The notes under the pieces: generated by a model
What the model was told of the DNA's origin: nothing
The model's input: only the letters and a program-made list of their open reading frames with translations
The model's database searches: none
Sequence record: OP172785
Direction: 5' to 3' (one strand)
DNA: 64,000 bases
Source: Escherichia phage ECO07P2
Translations under genes and position numbers: made by a program
Shown here: positions 6,683 through 51,908 of the stretch, in pieces
How the letters are laid out: each line of letters begins with the position of its first letter
How positions within the stretch are numbered: the stretch's first letter is position 1

Positions 6683-7264
6683 CTAACCGAGCTTTTTAGT
6701 TAATTCATTCCAATGTTTTCTGCACAAAGAAACATAAATTTCATCACCAATACAGATTTGATTACCTTCTTTAACTGGTGTTCCATCTTCCATTAATCGA
6801 GCTGTCATAATCGCTTTTTTACCACAATGACAAACTGCTTTTAGTTCAATAAGTTTATCTGCAATTGCCAAAAGTTCTTTAGAACCTTCAAATAATTTTC
6901 CAGCGAAATCAGTCCTTAGACCATAAGCCATAACAGGAACATTATATGTATCAACAATTCGGCTTAATTGATGCACCTGTTCAGTTTTTAAAAACTGAGC
7001 TTCATCTACAAATACACAATGAATATCTTTTTGTGCTTCAGCCCATTTATAGAACTCAAAAATATCCATATCATCCGTAATAATATTCGCTTCCTGCTTA
7101 ATTCCAATGCGAGAAACGACTTCACAGACAGAATCGCGAGTATCAATAGCAGGTTTAAGAACTAATACACTCATTCCACGTTCTTTATAATTATGTGCAG
7201 CAGTCAAAAGAGAAGCAGATTTTCCAGCATTCATTGCTGCATAAGTAAAAATTAAACTCGCCAT
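6683..7264 (-). CDS. tk: thymidine kinase
   Basis: 193 aa; P-loop FTYAAMNAGKS and C-terminal zinc-binding CxxC...CRKH typical of type II thymidine kinase; same length as T4 Tk. Confidence 0.95.
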   Translation of the reverse strand: MASLIFTYAAMNAGKSASLLTAAHNYKERGMSVLVLKPAIDTRDSVCEVVSRIGIKQEANIITDDMDIFEFYKWAEAQKDIHCVFVDEAQFLKTEQVHQLSRIVDTYNVPVMAYGLRTDFAGKLFEGSKELLAIADKLIELKAVCHCGKKAIMTARLMEDGTPVKEGNQICIGDEIYVSLCRKHWNELTKKLG

Positions 7265-11846: not shown

Positions 11847-12320
11847 TTATTTGAATGATTTGACGTACTGAATAGAGCCTTTGCTATTCACGAAAGCGAT
11901 TTTACCATTTTTATTATACATGGTAGCAGTACGCTGATAGCCATAAGTTTGCTTACCAGATTGATAACCAACTAATGCAAAATTATCTTCACCCATTTTA
12001 TTCTGTTTAGCACGAATGCGTTCATGACCATGCGCCATAAGAACCTTAGCATCACCAGTTGCAATGGATCTACGAGTTTTTTCATCTTCAACTGTATTAA
12101 CAAAGTCGTCAAATGAATCAAATTTAGCGTGAGATTTATTATACAGTTTTCCATCTACTGCATAATTGTATCCCTGTACATCCATCTCAACTTCTGTACC
12201 ATCATCCAATACAGCAGTGATTTTTTGACCTTTTTTAAATTTCAAAAGATCAGTAAAAGATTCAGCAATAATTTGAGAATTAATAGCTGCCTCAGTAATA
12301 AATTCTTGATATGTTTTCAT
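11847..12320 (-). CDS. capsid-targeting-sequence (CTS) protein, internal-protein-like
   Basis: 157 aa; N-terminus MKTYQEFITEAA is the T4 CTS shared by IPI, IPII, IPIII and Alt and cut by gp21 after Glu. Confidence 0.7.
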   Translation of the reverse strand: MKTYQEFITEAAINSQIIAESFTDLLKFKKGQKITAVLDDGTEVEMDVQGYNYAVDGKLYNKSHAKFDSFDDFVNTVEDEKTRRSIATGDAKVLMAHGHERIRAKQNKMGEDNFALVGYQSGKQTYGYQRTATMYNKNGKIAFVNSKGSIQYVKSFK

Positions 12321-12360
12321 GTTATCCTTTAAATGTAAATAGTTTTATTCTTTAAGTTTT

Positions 12361-12408
12361 GGACAATTCACACGCATGAATTGTCCGTTTCTATATTTAC
12401 CCATTACC
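12361..12408 (-). repeat. copy 2 of conserved intergenic element, with perfect 10-bp inverted repeat
   Basis: ggacaattca-cacgca-tgaattgtcc hairpin (12361-12386) overlapping the 35-bp core shared with 11728-11762. Confidence 0.6.
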
Positions 12409-12427
12409 AGGTTCGAAATCGGCTTTA

Positions 12428-13006
12428 TTAAGAATTACCACGGGCTGCATTAGCAACGGCGTAAGCGTACTGAACATTAGCGTCTTTAAACGTACCTTTA
12501 GAGGTATCTAGTTCTGCCTTAAAGCCGCCTTTAGTCATAACCTCGGCGAATTCTTTACGGAAAGCCATTGCATCAAGGCTTCTCCATGACGATTTGTGCT
12601 TGGCGAATTCAAGACCAGCGTAGTTGACAGCCTTAGCTAATTTATTATCAATAACCCATTTACCAGCTTTAGGCACAAATACCGGGCCTTTCTGTTTGGA
12701 GAATAGTTTTAAATTCCAGCGACGAAGGTCACCGTCAGCTTTAACAAAAGCTGCGTCCAAGTTACTAGCAACAACATCTTGAATATGGCCAAATTTAAGC
12801 CCATCAACTTCAATATTTAGATCAGTACGCCAGCGAAGTCCTTCCCAAGCGAAAGCTTTAAAGTCAGAAGCCTTTGTAGCTAAATACCGTTCAATAGGAG
12901 CTGTTTTAGGGTCAAAGCCGTTTCCTCGGTAAGTCCACTCATCTTTATTAATGCCTTTGGCCTTTTCCACAGAAGCTTCAGTGATAAATTCTTTATAGGT
13001 TTTCAT
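12428..13006 (-). CDS. CTS protein (IPIII-sized internal protein)
   Basis: 192 aa; N-terminus MKTYKEFITEAS; length close to T4 IPIII (194 aa) but identity not verified. Confidence 0.7.
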   Translation of the reverse strand: MKTYKEFITEASVEKAKGINKDEWTYRGNGFDPKTAPIERYLATKASDFKAFAWEGLRWRTDLNIEVDGLKFGHIQDVVASNLDAAFVKADGDLRRWNLKLFSKQKGPVFVPKAGKWVIDNKLAKAVNYAGLEFAKHKSSWRSLDAMAFRKEFAEVMTKGGFKAELDTSKGTFKDANVQYAYAVANAARGNS

Positions 13007-13021
13007 GTGTTTCCTTTATTT

Positions 13022-13336
13022 TTATTCTTTAGGGAAGTTTTTAGAATATGCATCATAAAGCTTATTTCCAATACGGCGGAAAACTCTAGCCGCAAAACGA
13101 TTTTCTGGGTTTTTAATCATGATTTGCATCATATAAGTACCCGCGTCAGAAAGAGCTTCTTCATAGTACCCGTTAATTTCTTTAAGAGTCCTACGTTTAC
13201 CACCAGGACCATCAACAGTGATTTTCCATTTACCTGTAGAAGTGCGACTTGGCGGCTCAACTTGTTCAATCCAGATATAACCGCCTTCTACACGTTGGTT
13301 GGCGGATTCTGCAATAAATTCTTTATATGTTTTCAT
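13022..13336 (-). CDS. CTS protein (IPII-sized internal protein)
   Basis: 104 aa; N-terminus MKTYKEFIAESA; basic small protein. Confidence 0.7.
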   Translation of the reverse strand: MKTYKEFIAESANQRVEGGYIWIEQVEPPSRTSTGKWKITVDGPGGKRRTLKEINGYYEEALSDAGTYMMQIMIKNPENRFAARVFRRIGNKLYDAYSKNFPKE

Positions 13337-13366
13337 TTTTGTTTCCTTGTTTATTTTGATAGAGTA

Positions 13367-13396
13367 ATTATACCATATTAATACTTAAGCGTAAAC
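13367..13396 (-). promoter_or_regulatory. T4-type early promoter
   Basis: gtaaac 13391-13396, attata 13367-13372 (TATAAT), spacer 18. Confidence 0.6.
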
Positions 13397-13452
13397 CGTT
13401 TAAGCTTCACCGCCAGAAATAATTCCGAAGTTGTTAAATTGATACGAGTCAT
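13378..13452 (-). pseudogene. denV: relic of denV (endonuclease V) reduced to 24 codons
   Basis: minus-strand ATG at 13452 behind GGAGG encodes MTRINLTTSELFLAVKLKRFTLKY then stop; first 11 residues match T4 endonuclease V MTRINLTLVSEL as recalled. Confidence 0.5.
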
Positions 13453-13479
13453 AATTTCCTCCAAGTAGTTGATGAATGT

Positions 13480-13509
13480 ATAGTATCAAAGTCCTTGGAG
13501 GAAGTAAAC
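13480..13509 (-). promoter_or_regulatory. T4-type early promoter
   Basis: gtaaac 13504-13509, atagta 13480-13485, spacer 18. Confidence 0.6.
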
Positions 13510-13510
13510 A

Positions 13511-13792
13511 CTATTTTTCTGAAGCGCCTGAAATATATTTTTCAAGACGTTGTTTCATTAGCGAGCCGTTCTTAGCGATTTCTTCTGGTTTATCGCACAT
13601 ACGCAACAAGGCTTCAAGCTTAACGATATCGCTGGTACGTTCAAATTTGCGAGTATCTATCTTACTAGCAAGTTCAGAAATACGTGCTAATAGACTTTCA
13701 GCTTCAACCAAAGCTGCACCTAGCTTAGTTGCAAAGGTGTCAGTAGCTTCGTTAAGAATAGATTCTGATAAAAATTCACTATATGTTTTCAT
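13511..13792 (-). CDS. CTS protein (internal-protein-like, 93 aa)
   Basis: ATG at 13792 overlaps lysozyme stop; N-terminus [11 protein letters not shown]; track start at 13807 is a TTG. Confidence 0.65.
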
Positions 13793-14290: not shown

Positions 14291-14311
14291 TATTTATAGA
14301 AGGTATTTATA
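14291..14311 (-). promoter_or_regulatory. two overlapping late promoters (TATAAATA on minus strand) upstream of e
   Basis: plus-strand tatttata at 14291-14298 and 14304-14311, 14-34 nt upstream of e start codon. Confidence 0.55.
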
Positions 14312-17326: not shown

Positions 17327-17455
17327 AGTTTTGTGAAAAATTTTAAAAAGTTTTAGGGAATTCTAGGGCAGGGAGGGGCAATTAAAGGATAGGATAATAT
17401 ATTATAAAGGGTAGAAACTAAATGATGTCTAGAGAGGCCTGGAAAGGCCTAGATA

Positions 17456-17486
17456 CCAAAAAGCCCCAACCCTTTGGCTAGGGCTA
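17456..17486 (-). terminator. rho-independent terminator (minus strand)
   Basis: minus RNA AGCCCUAGCC-AAAG-GGUUGGGGCU followed by U5, just after stop of CTS gene 17493-17966. Confidence 0.6.
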
Positions 17487-17492
17487 AGAATG

Positions 17493-17966
17493 TTATTTGA
17501 TCTGTTTAGCAGACCAAATGCGGTCTTTAATAATTTTTTGGATGTCTTCAACATACTCAAGAGAGTGAGCATGTGGGTTATCTTTGAAACTATAAGCACG
17601 AGCCAGTTTTTGGCCTTCAGTTTTGATTACTAAAAGCTCTTTAAGGATAGCTTCATATTTGGAGATAATTCCTTTAACAATATTTTTTTCTTGTACAGCT
17701 TTAGGATCTGCTTTAGGAGCAGGTTTACCTGAAGCCTTTGCAAAAGCAGCTCCAGTAGCAACTAAACTTTTCCAAGCCATACTAACTGCATTCCCTGTAA
17801 ATCCTTCGGCTTTCATATCACGAGCAAATTGGAATCGTGATTCATCGGAAGCATCTTTATAGGAATATTTACCCGCGGCAATGGCAGCTTTTGCAACAGC
17901 TTGAATTTCAGTGCTAGATGCTTCATTTAACACAGCTTCATTTAAAAATTGAGCATATGATTTCAT
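17493..17966 (-). CDS. CTS protein (internal-protein-like, 157 aa)
   Basis: N-terminus MKSYAQFLNEAV resembles the CTS; Ala/Lys-rich body; own late promoter and flanking terminators. Confidence 0.6.
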   Translation of the reverse strand: MKSYAQFLNEAVLNEASSTEIQAVAKAAIAAGKYSYKDASDESRFQFARDMKAEGFTGNAVSMAWKSLVATGAAFAKASGKPAPKADPKAVQEKNIVKGIISKYEAILKELLVIKTEGQKLARAYSFKDNPHAHSLEYVEDIQKIIKDRIWSAKQIK

Positions 17967-18002
17967 CTTATTTCCTGTTTTAATTCGTGGTTTTAATATA
18001 CT

Positions 18003-18010
18003 TATTTATA
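18003..18010 (-). promoter_or_regulatory. late promoter (TATAAATA on minus strand)
   Basis: plus-strand tatttata 18003-18010, about 37 nt upstream of ATG at 17966. Confidence 0.55.
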
Positions 18011-18013
18011 CTA

Positions 18014-18040
18014 AAAAGCCCCAACCTTTCGGTCGGGGCT
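18014..18040 (-). terminator. rho-independent terminator with GAAA loop (minus strand)
   Basis: minus RNA AGCCCCGACC-GAAA-GGUUGGGGCU followed by U5; ends transcription coming from tRNA and small-RNA region. Confidence 0.65.
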
Positions 18041-18045
18041 AAGCC

Positions 18046-18351: not shown

Positions 18352-18702
18352 TTAATATTCTTTTAAAGCATCAATCTGTTCACGGCGTTTACGCCATAAA
18401 TCAATTGCCTCATACGCGGATTCAGCATTTCGAATTGGACGGCATTTATATAAAGACTTATGATTTTGATATTGCGTAGATAACGGAATTTTATCTAAAA
18501 GGTCTTTACGTTCAAAGTATTCGTAACCATCTAAACCAAATGAACGATTTTTGAGAAATTGCCAATGACCATATTCGTTTTCGACATAAACATAATCTGC
18601 ATGCTGATAAAGTAAATTAATTACACGTTCAGAAATAACAGTGTCATTGTGATTAAAATAGAATGTTAAATCATGAACTACTAAATAAACATTACCTTTC
18701 AT
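18352..18702 (-). CDS. hypothetical protein (116 aa) embedded in tRNA region
   Basis: ORF in track ending 16 nt before tRNA-Arg. Confidence 0.5.
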   Translation of the reverse strand: MKGNVYLVVHDLTFYFNHNDTVISERVINLLYQHADYVYVENEYGHWQFLKNRSFGLDGYEYFERKDLLDKIPLSTQYQNHKSLYKCRPIRNAESAYEAIDLWRKRREQIDALKEY

Positions 18703-18874: not shown

Positions 18875-18988
18875 ATTAATATCTACTCCAACAATCAAGA
18901 TGTCTTCACACGAAATTAAGAGAAGAGTGATCAGTTCAACCCCGATAATCGCGTCAAGTAGATATTAATGTGACAGTTGTCACAAATT

Positions 18989-20786: not shown

Positions 20787-21095
20787 CTATTTTATTCCGC
20801 GTGATGCAATTGTGTTCTGCCGTTTAACACCAGTTTGTTTAAAGTCATGATTGTCGATTTGATCGGTACGAGCAACACCGAATGATGATTTAATCTTAGC
20901 TTTAGATCCTTTAGTTATAGAAATAAACATCTCGGAAGCCCCTTTCTTAAAGTCCGAGGCGATTACTTCAACGCCGTTCTTAGCAAGTGACCTCAGAATT
21001 GCCTCCGCGTACTCATCATCAAGACTCGCCTGAGTATTAATAACGAATGTCTTTGGTGCAGCCGCTTCATTGATAAATTCTTGATATGTTTTCAT
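20787..21095 (-). CDS. CTS protein (internal-protein-like, about 102 aa)
   Basis: MKTYQEFINEAAAPK from ATG at 21095; an upstream in-frame ATG at 21107 would add 4 residues. Confidence 0.65.
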   Translation of the reverse strand: MKTYQEFINEAAAPKTFVINTQASLDDEYAEAILRSLAKNGVEVIASDFKKGASEMFISITKGSKAKIKSSFGVARTDQIDNHDFKQTGVKRQNTIASRGIK

Positions 21096-21129
21096 TTTGA
21101 TTTCCATTTAGTTTTGTTTTGATAGTGTA

Positions 21130-21159
21130 ATAGTATCACAACTAAACCACCGTGTAAAC
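21130..21159 (-). promoter_or_regulatory. T4-type early promoter
   Basis: gtaaac 21154-21159, atagta 21130-21135, spacer 18. Confidence 0.6.
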
Positions 21160-21162
21160 AAT

Positions 21163-21435
21163 TTATTTTAAATAAATTGCATATTTTTTATAACCAGCCG
21201 TCTCGTGACGCAGACCTTTTTCATTAGCAAAGCGTTCAATATTATTAATTTGATTCTGATCAAGTTCTGAAATATCAAATACAAAAAAGTTTCGTTTATT
21301 TCCTAACGTTACATGATTCGTCAAATCAATGTTATAAAGATGATTTATATTATCAATCATAGTCTTAACAGATTTGCTAATTTTTACTTCTTCATTAAGA
21401 GCAGATTCAACGATAAACTCTTTGAAAGTTTTCAT
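21163..21435 (-). CDS. CTS protein at the ipI position (internal protein I-like)
   Basis: 90 aa; N-terminus MKTFKEFIVESA; located just upstream of 57B as T4 ipI. Confidence 0.7.
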   Translation of the reverse strand: MKTFKEFIVESALNEEVKISKSVKTMIDNINHLYNIDLTNHVTLGNKRNFFVFDISELDQNQINNIERFANEKGLRHETAGYKKYAIYLK

Positions 21436-21465
21436 TTTATTTTCCTAATTAATTTTGATGAGGTA

Positions 21466-21495
21466 ATAGTATCACTACCTCATCAACGTGTAAAC
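21466..21495 (-). promoter_or_regulatory. T4-type early promoter
   Basis: gtaaac 21490-21495, atagta 21466-21471, spacer 18. Confidence 0.6.
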
Positions 21496-21507
21496 AACTT
21501 TGTGAAA

Positions 21508-22204
<697 letters not shown>

Positions 22205-50005: not shown

Positions 50006-50430
50006 TGCTTCTGATCCCTGAAACTCATGAATTAGTTCTCGAGAATGTCGAAGCACTTATTCCTGAAGCACAGGGTCGCTTTGACGAATTGTCTTCTGCT
50101 TTAAATAAAGACGATATAAATACAATTGTCGAGAATATGCTTGATGATGAAACTGATTTAGCGGTTGCATTAGCTTCTATTAATGAAAATATGCCGTTAA
50201 ATGAATTCATCGTTAAACATGTTTCTGCCCGTGGTGAAATTACTCGCACTAAAGATCGCAAAACCCGCGAACGAAATGCATTTCAAACCACTGGGCTGTC
50301 TAAAGCAAAACGTAGACAAATTGCTCGTAAAGCTACCAAAACGAAGATTGCCAATCCAGCAGGTCAATCTCGTGCTCAGCGTAAGCGTAAAAAAGCTCTT
50401 AAACGCCGTAAAGCATTAGGATTAAGCTAA
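50005..50430 (+). CDS. 68: prohead core protein gp68
   Basis: 141 aa as in T4; basic C-terminus. Confidence 0.85.
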
Positions 50431-51068
50431 TGAATGAACCCCAATTACTAATTGAAACTTGGGGTCAACCTGGCGAAATTATTGATGGTGTGCCAATGCT
50501 TGAATCCCACGATGGAAAAGACCTAGGTTTAAAACCGGGTTTATACATCGAAGGAATATTCATGCAAGCGGAAGTCGTCAATAGAAATAAACGTCTTTAT
50601 CCAAAACGCATATTAGAAAAAGCGGTAAAAGACTATATCAATGAGCAAGTTTTAACTAAACAAGCTCTCGGAGAATTAAATCATCCTCCACGCGCTAATG
50701 TTGACCCGATGCAAGCCGCTATCATTATAGAAGATATGTGGTGGAAAGGAAATGACGTATACGGACGAGCTCGTGTTATTGAAGGTGACCATGGTCCTGG
50801 AGATAAATTAGCAGCTAATATTCGTGCCGGATGGATTCCAGGAGTTTCTTCTCGTGGATTAGGTTCATTGACTGACACAAATAAAGGTTATCGTATCGTA
50901 AACGAAGGATTCAAATTAACTGTAGGTGTTGATGCAGTATGGGGTCCAAGTGCTCCAGATGCATGGGTAACTCCTAAGGAAATTACCGAATCACAGACGG
51001 CGGAAGCCGATACAAGTGCCGATGACGCCTATATGGCTCTCGCAGAGGCCATGAAAAAAGCGTTATAA
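50430..51068 (+). CDS. 21: prohead core scaffold protease gp21
   Basis: 212 aa as in T4. Confidence 0.95.
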   Translation: MNEPQLLIETWGQPGEIIDGVPMLESHDGKDLGLKPGLYIEGIFMQAEVVNRNKRLYPKRILEKAVKDYINEQVLTKQALGELNHPPRANVDPMQAAIIIEDMWWKGNDVYGRARVIEGDHGPGDKLAANIRAGWIPGVSSRGLGSLTDTNKGYRIVNEGFKLTVGVDAVWGPSAPDAWVTPKEITESQTAEADTSADDAYMALAEAMKKAL

Positions 51069-51098: not shown

Positions 51099-51908
51099 AT
51101 GCTTAAAGAACAACTGATTGCCGAAGCGCAGAAAATTGATGCTTCCGTTGCTCTTGATAGTATTTTCGAATCAGTTAATATTTCTCCGGAAGCAAAAGAA
51201 ACTTTCGGCACTGTATTCGAAGCTACCGTCAAGCAGCACGCCGTTAAATTAGCTGAATCTCATATCGCTAAAATTGCTGAAAAAGCAGAAGAAGAAGTAG
51301 AAAAAAATAAAGAAGAAGCCGAAGAAAAAGCTGAGAAGAAAATCGCTGAGCAAGCTTCTAAATTCATCGACCATCTTGCGAAAGAATGGCTCGCTGAAAA
51401 TAAATTAGCAGTTGATAAAGGCATCAAAGCCGAACTGTTTGAATCCATGCTTGGTGGATTAAAAGAGCTCTTTGTTGAACACAACGTTGTTGTTCCAGAA
51501 GAATCAGTTGATGTTGTAGCTGAAATGGAAGAAGAGCTGCAAGAACATAAAGAAGAATCAGCTCGTCTGTTCGAAGAACTCAATAAGCGTGACGCATATA
51601 TCAATTATGTGCAGCGTGAAGTGGCATTGAGCGAAAGTACTAAAGATCTGACTGAGTCTCAAAAAGAAAAAGTCTCTGCTCTGGTCGAAGGTATGGATTA
51701 TTCAGATGAATTCTCAAGTAAATTGAGTGCCATCGTAGAAATGGTGAAGAAGTCTAATAAAGATGAAAGCACTATTACTGAGGGTATAAATACTCCTGAT
51801 ACTGAAGCAGCCGGACTGAATTTCGTCACTGAAGCTGTAGAAGATAAAGCTGCACCTGGTGCAGAAGATATTGTAAGTGTATATGCGAAAGTCGCATCTC
51901 GTTTCTAA
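51099..51908 (+). CDS. 22: prohead core scaffold protein gp22
   Basis: 269 aa, Glu/Lys/Ala-rich coiled coil. Confidence 0.9.
   Translation: MLKEQLIAEAQKIDASVALDSIFESVNISPEAKETFGTVFEATVKQHAVKLAESHIAKIAEKAEEEVEKNKEEAEEKAEKKIAEQASKFIDHLAKEWLAENKLAVDKGIKAELFESMLGGLKELFVEHNVVVPEESVDVVAEMEEELQEHKEESARLFEELNKRDAYINYVQREVALSESTKDLTESQKEKVSALVEGMDYSDEFSSKLSAIVEMVKKSNKDESTITEGINTPDTEAAGLNFVTEAVEDKAAPGAEDIVSVYAKVASRF

Follow-up and report, generated by a model that had tools for sequence, protein, structure and literature searches.

A gene on the minus strand of Escherichia phage ECO07P2 (sequence record OP172785), at 17493-17966 of the 64,000-nucleotide stretch analyzed here (the window), probably encodes a late-only accessory internal head protein of the T-even type that is packaged into the prohead, trimmed by the gp21 protease and injected into the host. 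This reading draws on the anatomy of the gene, its conservation and the targeting and processing determinants of its product, which are laid out below. CTS-bearing injected proteins of T-even phages are a kind already known; existing annotation does not assign this family, its locus or its late-only cassette to that kind. The window comes from a Tequatrovirus other than T4 but is collinear with T4, and it runs in the order e, nudE, e.2-e.8, the 17493-17966 gene, rnaC/rnaD, a cluster of 11 tRNA genes, trna.2-4, two ip genes, 57B, 57A and head genes. The gene sits between the tRNA/rnaD/rnaC operon and e.8, and its features are as follows.

17493..17966, minus strand: coding sequence with an ATG start, 157 aa, first residues MKSYAQFLNEAVLNE / MKSYAQFLNEAVLNEASS by direct reading of the sequence; PHROG 2280 (function unknown); dN/dS ~0.10; 510-511 phage records
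17973..17976, minus strand: Shine-Dalgarno AGGA, 6 nt 5' of the ATG, by direct sequence reading
18003..18010, minus strand: T4-type late promoter TATAAATA, exact motif; predicted start ~17996-17997 from late-promoter geometry
18012..18040, minus strand: upstream intrinsic terminator, AGCCCCGACC-GAAA-GGTTGGGGCT + U5, which ends the tRNA/rnaD/rnaC transcription unit
17457..17485, minus strand: downstream intrinsic terminator, AGCCCTAGCC-AAAG-GGTTGGGGCT + U5
18008..18042, minus strand: upstream copy of a direct repeat of ~35 bp
17453..17487, minus strand: downstream copy of the same repeat; positions 6826-6860 of the T4 segment (L001) align to both copies, and T2 does likewise

Because stable RNA genes adjoin the locus and the databases offer only the label of a hypothetical protein (60 records drawn from all parts of the ranking use either "hypothetical protein" or "Phage protein"), the ORF could be spurious and its conserved DNA a non-coding extension of the rnaC region. 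Comparison with RB27, SHSML-52-1 and GRNsp7 gave a dN/dS of ~0.10 with dS above 1, which indicates a protein-coding gene under purifying selection. Additionally, a Shine-Dalgarno sequence is present, full-length homologues were found in ~510 records from several genera (511 phages by tblastn with the 157-aa protein, 510 records with the coding DNA), the helices predicted by AlphaFold2 are confident, and Rfam gave no match inside the ORF, with only tRNAs nearby. These observations essentially exclude the spurious-ORF explanation. A single UniRef entry, from Klebsiella phage KPKp, carries the label "Internal head protein", which stems from BLAST/Artemis annotation only.

The sole promoter-like site before the gene is the exact, conserved TATAAATA, and a promoter scan found no sigma-70-like promoter between the upstream terminator and the ATG. 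Exact copies of the motif number 23 in the 64-kb window compared to 9.9 +/- 3.1 in shuffled sequences. In T4 late promoters, an octamer of this type lies at about -13 to -6, and this established geometry places the predicted transcript start at ~17996-17997 on the minus strand. A first-pass annotation of the window had described an ORF with a CTS-like start at 17493-17966 and an exact late-promoter motif 37 nt upstream on its own strand, and both were recovered here: the 157-residue product opens with the leader MKSYAQFLNE, and 37 nt separate the last base of the TATAAATA at 18003-18010 from the A of the ATG. The transcript start that it had placed near 17975 does not agree with the geometry. 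On the basis of this promoter arrangement, the gene looks to be expressed only late, a timing that would suit a protein with the prohead as its only destination.

Transcription of the cassette is predicted to be bounded by two hairpins. A terminator scan of the minus strand identified a 10-bp stem, a 4-nt loop and a following T5 at both 18040-18017 and 17485-17462. The upstream terminator folds at -20.3 kcal/mol (z -4.7) and the downstream one at -17.4 kcal/mol (z -3.0), with 0 of 200 shuffled sequences as good in either case. Hairpin-plus-U-run terminators had been proposed on both sides, at 18014-18040 and 17456-17486, and are present at 18017-18040 and 17462-17485. The further claim that they insulate the cassette holds only in part, because the upstream terminator belongs to the tRNA/rnaD/rnaC operon, has its homologue in the one terminator that follows rnaC in T4, and is found there without the cassette; it is not a private insulator. 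Judged by its sequence, the downstream terminator is a diverged copy of the upstream one. The late promoter TATAAATA abuts the upstream repeat copy only, the downstream copy having GGTATCTAGG, and no sigma-70-like site adjoining either copy was found in the promoter scan. The cassette, comprising the late promoter, the gene and a terminator, amounts to 521 bp bounded by the ~35-bp direct repeat. The description of a discrete, self-contained late-type cassette is therefore upheld at the level of sequence by the promoter, Shine-Dalgarno sequence, leader and terminators, and by its presence here compared to its absence from T4, T2 and PST.

This architecture resembles the promoter-early stem-loop (PeSL) cassettes (Arbiol 2010, Comeau 2014; PMC2839356, PMC4122927), in which a single accessory ORF likewise lies between repeated stem-loop/terminator motifs and its presence or absence is explained by recombination between the repeats (PMC4122927). 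However, the PeSL repeat combines a terminator with a sigma-70-like early promoter, whereas the repeat described here is an intrinsic terminator with a late promoter at the upstream copy only, and the flanking repeats lack the combination of stem-loop and sigma-70-like early promoter that marks a PeSL. The cassette illustrates terminator repeats as indel boundaries for a late gene. In SHSML-52-1 both terminator copies read CCCCTTCC, and in fFiEco06 both read CCCCGACC. Among the handful of genomes compared (including L002, L003 and L004), this within-genome sharing of terminator-stem variants suggests concerted evolution or gene conversion, with ongoing exchange between the two copies, and would make deletion by recombination between them a natural route to the state of T4, T2 and PST.

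The terminator, the TATAAATA promoter and a CTS-type leader are kept together as a unit in RB27, GRNsp7 and RCIP0032, with the same offset of the promoter from the terminator U-run, and the Mosigvirus SHSML-52-1 keeps the unit with the promoter as AATAAATA. The string GGGGCTTTTT(A/G)GTATAAATA is conserved in RB27 and GRNsp7; in RCIP0032 the terminator stem differs in sequence, yet GGGGCTTTTTAGTATAAATA is identical.

The first-pass annotation had suggested a comparison with the homologous locus in other T4-like genomes, and this comparison separated empty from filled sites. T4 has no gene at the rnaC-e.8 position and a single terminator there; the T4 flanks align to window positions 18352-18008 (upstream side) and 17487-16990 (downstream side). 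The gene is also absent from T2, which has the identical single-terminator junction, and from PST, which has a single terminator and just 540 bp from e.8 to tRNA-Arg. The same site, just after the tRNA/rnaC unit, is occupied in RB27 and GRNsp7 (both Tequatrovirus), SHSML-52-1 (Mosigvirus) and Klebsiella phage RCIP0032, and a homologue is present in Yersinia phage fHe-Yen9-01. That one and the same site is filled in more than one genus points to a cassette already present in the ancestor of several Tevenvirinae genera, and to a loss in T4. T4, T2 and PST probably lost the cassette by recombination between the two terminator-repeat copies.

The neighboring rnaC/rnaD DNA matched 796 records, of which roughly 470 (~60%) appear to have the gene. 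Carriers include RB18, RB27, AR1, PP01, HY01, ime09 and BASEL Bas42, as well as therapy candidates and O157 typing phages. For the Klebsiella-type phages, 134 records matched the homologue together with flanking sequence, and in 23 of them the match spans 80% or more of the homologue. The gene is small and polymorphic in presence among close relatives, and its absence from T4, T2 and PST indicates that it is dispensable. In GRNsp7 (L006 2018-2572) and SHSML-52-1 (L004 2089-2592), extra unrelated ORFs, one of them encoding a predicted membrane protein, lie between the gene and e.8, which marks the rnaC-e.8 interval as a small hyperplastic region. No CTS was found on the neighboring variable ORFs of this locus in GRNsp7, SHSML-52-1 or RCIP0032.

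The N-terminal leader carries the determinants that point to the prohead, and three window features bear on it.

17922..17966, minus strand: leader, residues 1-15 (MKSYAQFLNE/AVLNE/, slashes marking the sites), a CTS-like propeptide with two L-X-E gp21 sites, after E10 and E15
50430-51068, plus strand: gp21 prohead protease (Pfam Peptidase_S77, 1.5e-111)
51099-51908, plus strand: gp22 scaffold (T4_CASP, 3.8e-90)

The window likewise encodes gp67 and gp23. Residues 1-10 of IPIII are sufficient for head incorporation; residues 4 and 7 are important in targeting, positions 8 and 10 in processing, and gp21 cuts after the Glu of L/I-X-E (PMC9026906). CTS fusions bring foreign proteins such as GFP into heads (PMC9026906, PMC3012670). 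The leader MKSYAQFLNE retains Y4 and F7 at the targeting positions and L8 and E10 at the processing positions. Two gp21-type sites, each before a small residue, are present as L8-N-E10/A and L13-N-E15/A; the residues from A11 are AVLNEASSTEIQAVAK, and those from A16 are ASSTEIQAVAK. A search of the six-frame translation with the pattern M[KL]x[YF]xxF[ILVM]xE gave 7 matches compared to 0.01 per shuffled window. Every match is on the minus strand and opens a long ORF, the pattern lying at the first start codon in five of the ORFs and after 4-5 extra codons in the other two. Four of the matches fall just downstream of gene e (the ipII/ipIII side), two at the ipI locus, and one is the 17493-17966 gene.

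The key leader positions stay while the remaining homologue protein drops to 37-51% identity. Homologue leaders include MKTYAQFLMTE, MKSYAEFLTE, MKTYNEFLNE, MLEYSEFLKE, MLKFNEFLAE and MKFKEFLAE; the Glu aligned with E15 is invariant in a first homologue alignment, and F7 and L8 are invariant in a second. The RB27-type leaders end in L-M-T-E, a looser fit that is not a strict L/I-X-E, and the Klebsiella homologue leader is shorter by one residue. Compared to MKTYQEFIAE, the leader studied here has Ser at position 3 and A-Q rather than Q-E at positions 5-6. Co-variation of the leader with the phage's own Ip leaders was considered and rejected, since the Ips of RCIP0032 start MKTYQEF... and its homologue starts MKFKEFLAE, with only the key positions retained.

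These departures leave room for a late cytoplasmic protein that is not packaged and whose CTS-like N-terminus, acquired by inheritance or recombination, plays no part in targeting. The leader differs from MKTYQEFIAE at positions 3, 5, 6, 8 and 9, the RB27- and Klebsiella-type leaders are further off, the gene lies outside both ip loci, and transcript, virion-proteome or injection data on this protein were not found in the literature. The Jiaodavirus virion mass spectrometry of PMC13119998, the only such dataset from a related genus, yielded none of the homologue peptide fragments looked for in its ValerieMcCarty04 table; as the phages used appear to be without the gene (ValerieMcCarty03 matches the flank only), this result does not bear on packaging. 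However, the four functional positions persist in no fewer than four phage lineages although the remaining sequence fell to the identities given above, only 0.01 matches to the CTS pattern are expected by chance per window, and a CTS suffices to package unrelated proteins, so that a CTS carrier made late should be packaged. We consider an unpackaged protein quite unlikely and favor targeting to the prohead.

Apart from the gene under study, six further ORFs with CTS leaders were observed in the window, at 11847-13792 (minus strand) and 20787-21435 (minus strand).

13511-13792, minus strand: CTS ORF, in the row just downstream of gene e
13022-13336, minus strand: CTS ORF, same row
12428-13006, minus strand: CTS ORF, same row, IPIII homologue
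11847-12320, minus strand: CTS ORF, same row
20787-21095, minus strand: CTS ORF at the ipI locus
21163-21435, minus strand: CTS ORF at the ipI locus

The CTS repertoire of the window exceeds the three of T4 and includes two mature products without a basic character (pI 6.3 and 8.0). At 13789-13792 (minus strand), the lysozyme gene e ends in a TGA that shares bases with the start codon of the first ip-like ORF (ATGA); translation of this ip-like gene is therefore probably coupled to that of e, and the two late promoters of e, at 14291-14298 and 14304-14311, probably serve both.

Comparison with these genes and with T4 sets the 17493-17966 gene apart in its promoter. In T4, an early-type GTTTAC...TAnnAT promoter precedes every one of ipI, ipII and ipIII (L001 1417-2416 and 9592-9879), and no exact TATAAATA was found within 120 nt upstream of any of the three. 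Among the six other CTS genes of the window, three follow early-type promoters (13337-13446, 21096-21205, 21436-21545), one overlaps the stop of e, and for the remaining two no separate promoter is evident; no exact TATAAATA was found within 110 nt upstream of any of them. Early-type promoters at ip genes, in contrast to the exact late promoter here, imply that expression timing relative to prohead assembly differs from that of the 17493-17966 gene.

In other respects, the predicted protein shares its general features with T4 IPI, IPII and IPIII and their T-even relatives (IpIV-Ip7 and later). These are alike in being small, mostly basic and equipped with a CTS of ~10 residues ending in L/I-X-E, and alike in being non-essential and variably present among T-even phages. 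The body of the protein differs from those of T4 IPI-III in having no sequence or fold similarity to them, and its packaging is predicted only. The gene occupies a third locus, rnaC-e.8, rather than 57B-trna.4 or the ip locus beside e (e-denV in T4), in agreement with an earlier suggestion that it is separate from the main internal-protein locus; the literature refers to "two Ip loci" (PMC12373910). It is also conserved across genera, unlike the typical hypervariable ip genes. T4 Alt and other gp21-processed head proteins follow the same logic, in which a propeptide leads to the prohead, gp21 trims the protein and delivery occurs with the DNA. However, Alt is a large enzyme that is processed at both ends and has another propeptide, whereas the protein described here has no recognizable catalytic domain.

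Removal of the 15 leader residues would leave a mature protein of 142 aa (~15.5 kDa) with a pI of 9.6, a net charge of +8 and 20 Lys compared to 4 Arg. The IPIII homologue in the window is similar (pI 9.62, +9), and Lys residues of internal proteins contact DNA phosphates (PMC3012670). AlphaFold2, run with a 9-sequence alignment (mean pLDDT 77), predicted an all-helical structure in three parts.

17733..17921, minus strand: N-terminal three-helix domain, residues 16-78, with the invariant AGKYSY...E.R..F..D...GF; blocks over residues 21-80 average pLDDT 79-91
17706..17732, minus strand: Ala/Lys/Pro-rich flexible linker, residues 79-87, from low pLDDT, no secondary structure and composition
17505..17705, minus strand: C-terminal antiparallel helical hairpin, helices 88-124 and 131-154

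Within Tequatrovirus and Mosigvirus, the C-terminal hairpin is almost frozen (omega 0.04-0.06) and the N-domain is more variable (omega 0.09-0.21). Between genera this is reversed, the N-domain being conserved and the C-terminus replaced.

The Ala/Lys-rich body had been noted as resembling nothing recognizable, and the searches agree. No significant match was obtained in Pfam, NCBIfam or by PDB sequence profile, PHROGs returned only the function-unknown family PHROG 2280, and direct comparison showed no similarity to T4 IPIII. No structural relative of the predicted fold was found, and the fold gives no functional clue. Two large-database protein searches returned homologues from T4-like phages only, with other matches discounted. 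Among the latter, P0017 and P0018 are repeat proteins that share just an AGSYSYKAF-like motif and were judged spurious, and P0012, P0014 and probably P0013 look like chimeric metagenome assemblies in which part of the protein is fused to unrelated sequence.

The shape of the fold raises a further alternative, in which the protein is a prohead-core or scaffold accessory that enters the prohead, is fragmented by gp21 and leaves in pieces, like gp22, gp67 and gp68, and that tunes assembly rather than being injected. The all-helical shape with a long antiparallel hairpin is often seen among scaffolding proteins, the long helix contains an internal L-K-E site at residue 110, the C-terminal half is highly conserved (omega ~0.05), and the predicted late-only expression is like that of head genes. 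On the other hand, the heads of T4, T2 and PST are normal without the gene, so that it cannot encode a needed part of the core. The internal candidate site is also the only one and lies in a confidently folded helix, and the basic, Lys-rich composition matches that of retained internal proteins. A role confined to the core is on these grounds unlikely, and a retained, injected protein is the reading that we prefer.

From these features, we infer late transcription, packaging, cleavage, injection and a function in the host, in the following course. After the onset of replication, the phage late transcription apparatus would start at the TATAAATA at 18003-18010 and produce a short monocistronic mRNA ending at the hairpin at 17462-17485. 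The CTS (MKSYAQFLNE) would bind the assembling scaffold core, by which the protein would be built into proheads, and gp21 would remove the leader after Glu10 and/or Glu15 (L-N-E/A). The ~15.5-kDa, Lys-rich basic protein (pI 9.6) would then lie among the packaged DNA and be ejected along with it into the next host, where its role would most likely be that of a dispensable, host-dependent helper.

Of all phage products, the injected internal proteins encounter host defenses first, and the T4 proteins Ip1, Ip2 and Ip3 are inhibitors of GmrSD type IV restriction enzymes, with a different enzyme as the target of each (PMC12373910, 2025). By analogy with Ip1-3, an anti-defense role is our leading guess for the host function, held with much less confidence than the assignment as an injected head protein; a DNA-associated, IPIII-like role is an alternative to which the same much lower confidence applies. 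No similarity to Ip1-3 was found by sequence or structure, and the supplements of PMC12373910 do not contain the sequence. As Ip1-3 mutually share only the leader, this missing similarity is compatible with an analogous role. Conservation across genera suits an arms-race effector less well.

A more tentative possibility is that the protein is the founding member of a third class and a third locus of injected T-even proteins. It would then be a two-module, late-only effector that combines the conserved three-helix domain with an exchangeable helical-hairpin C-terminus and that may act in the next host on a target other than GmrSD, for example, another defense system or a conserved host factor at DNA entry. 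If packaging is true, a third locus and a new protein family join the injected repertoire. The gene for this candidate injected protein, as predicted, is carried by ~510 sequenced phages, and the candidate has escaped notice because T4 and T2 are without it. The empty site of T4 suits a clean gain-of-function test.

Additional observations were made on the RNA-gene side of the locus. An unannotated 116-aa ORF (MKGNVYLVVHDLTFYF...) at 18352-18702 (minus strand) occupies the interval from tRNA-Arg to rnaD, in which T4 has no ORF; T2, GRNsp7 and SHSML-52-1 share this ORF in conserved form. A 114-nt spacer at 18875-18988 (minus strand) separates tRNA-Asn from tRNA-His, in which neither ARAGORN nor Rfam called a tRNA. 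A 13-bp inverted repeat, UUAAUAUCUACUU...GGAGUAGAUAUUAAU, closes this spacer, which has a folding energy of -31.3 kcal/mol (z -3.45). Finally, the window contains 11 tRNAs compared to 8 in T4.
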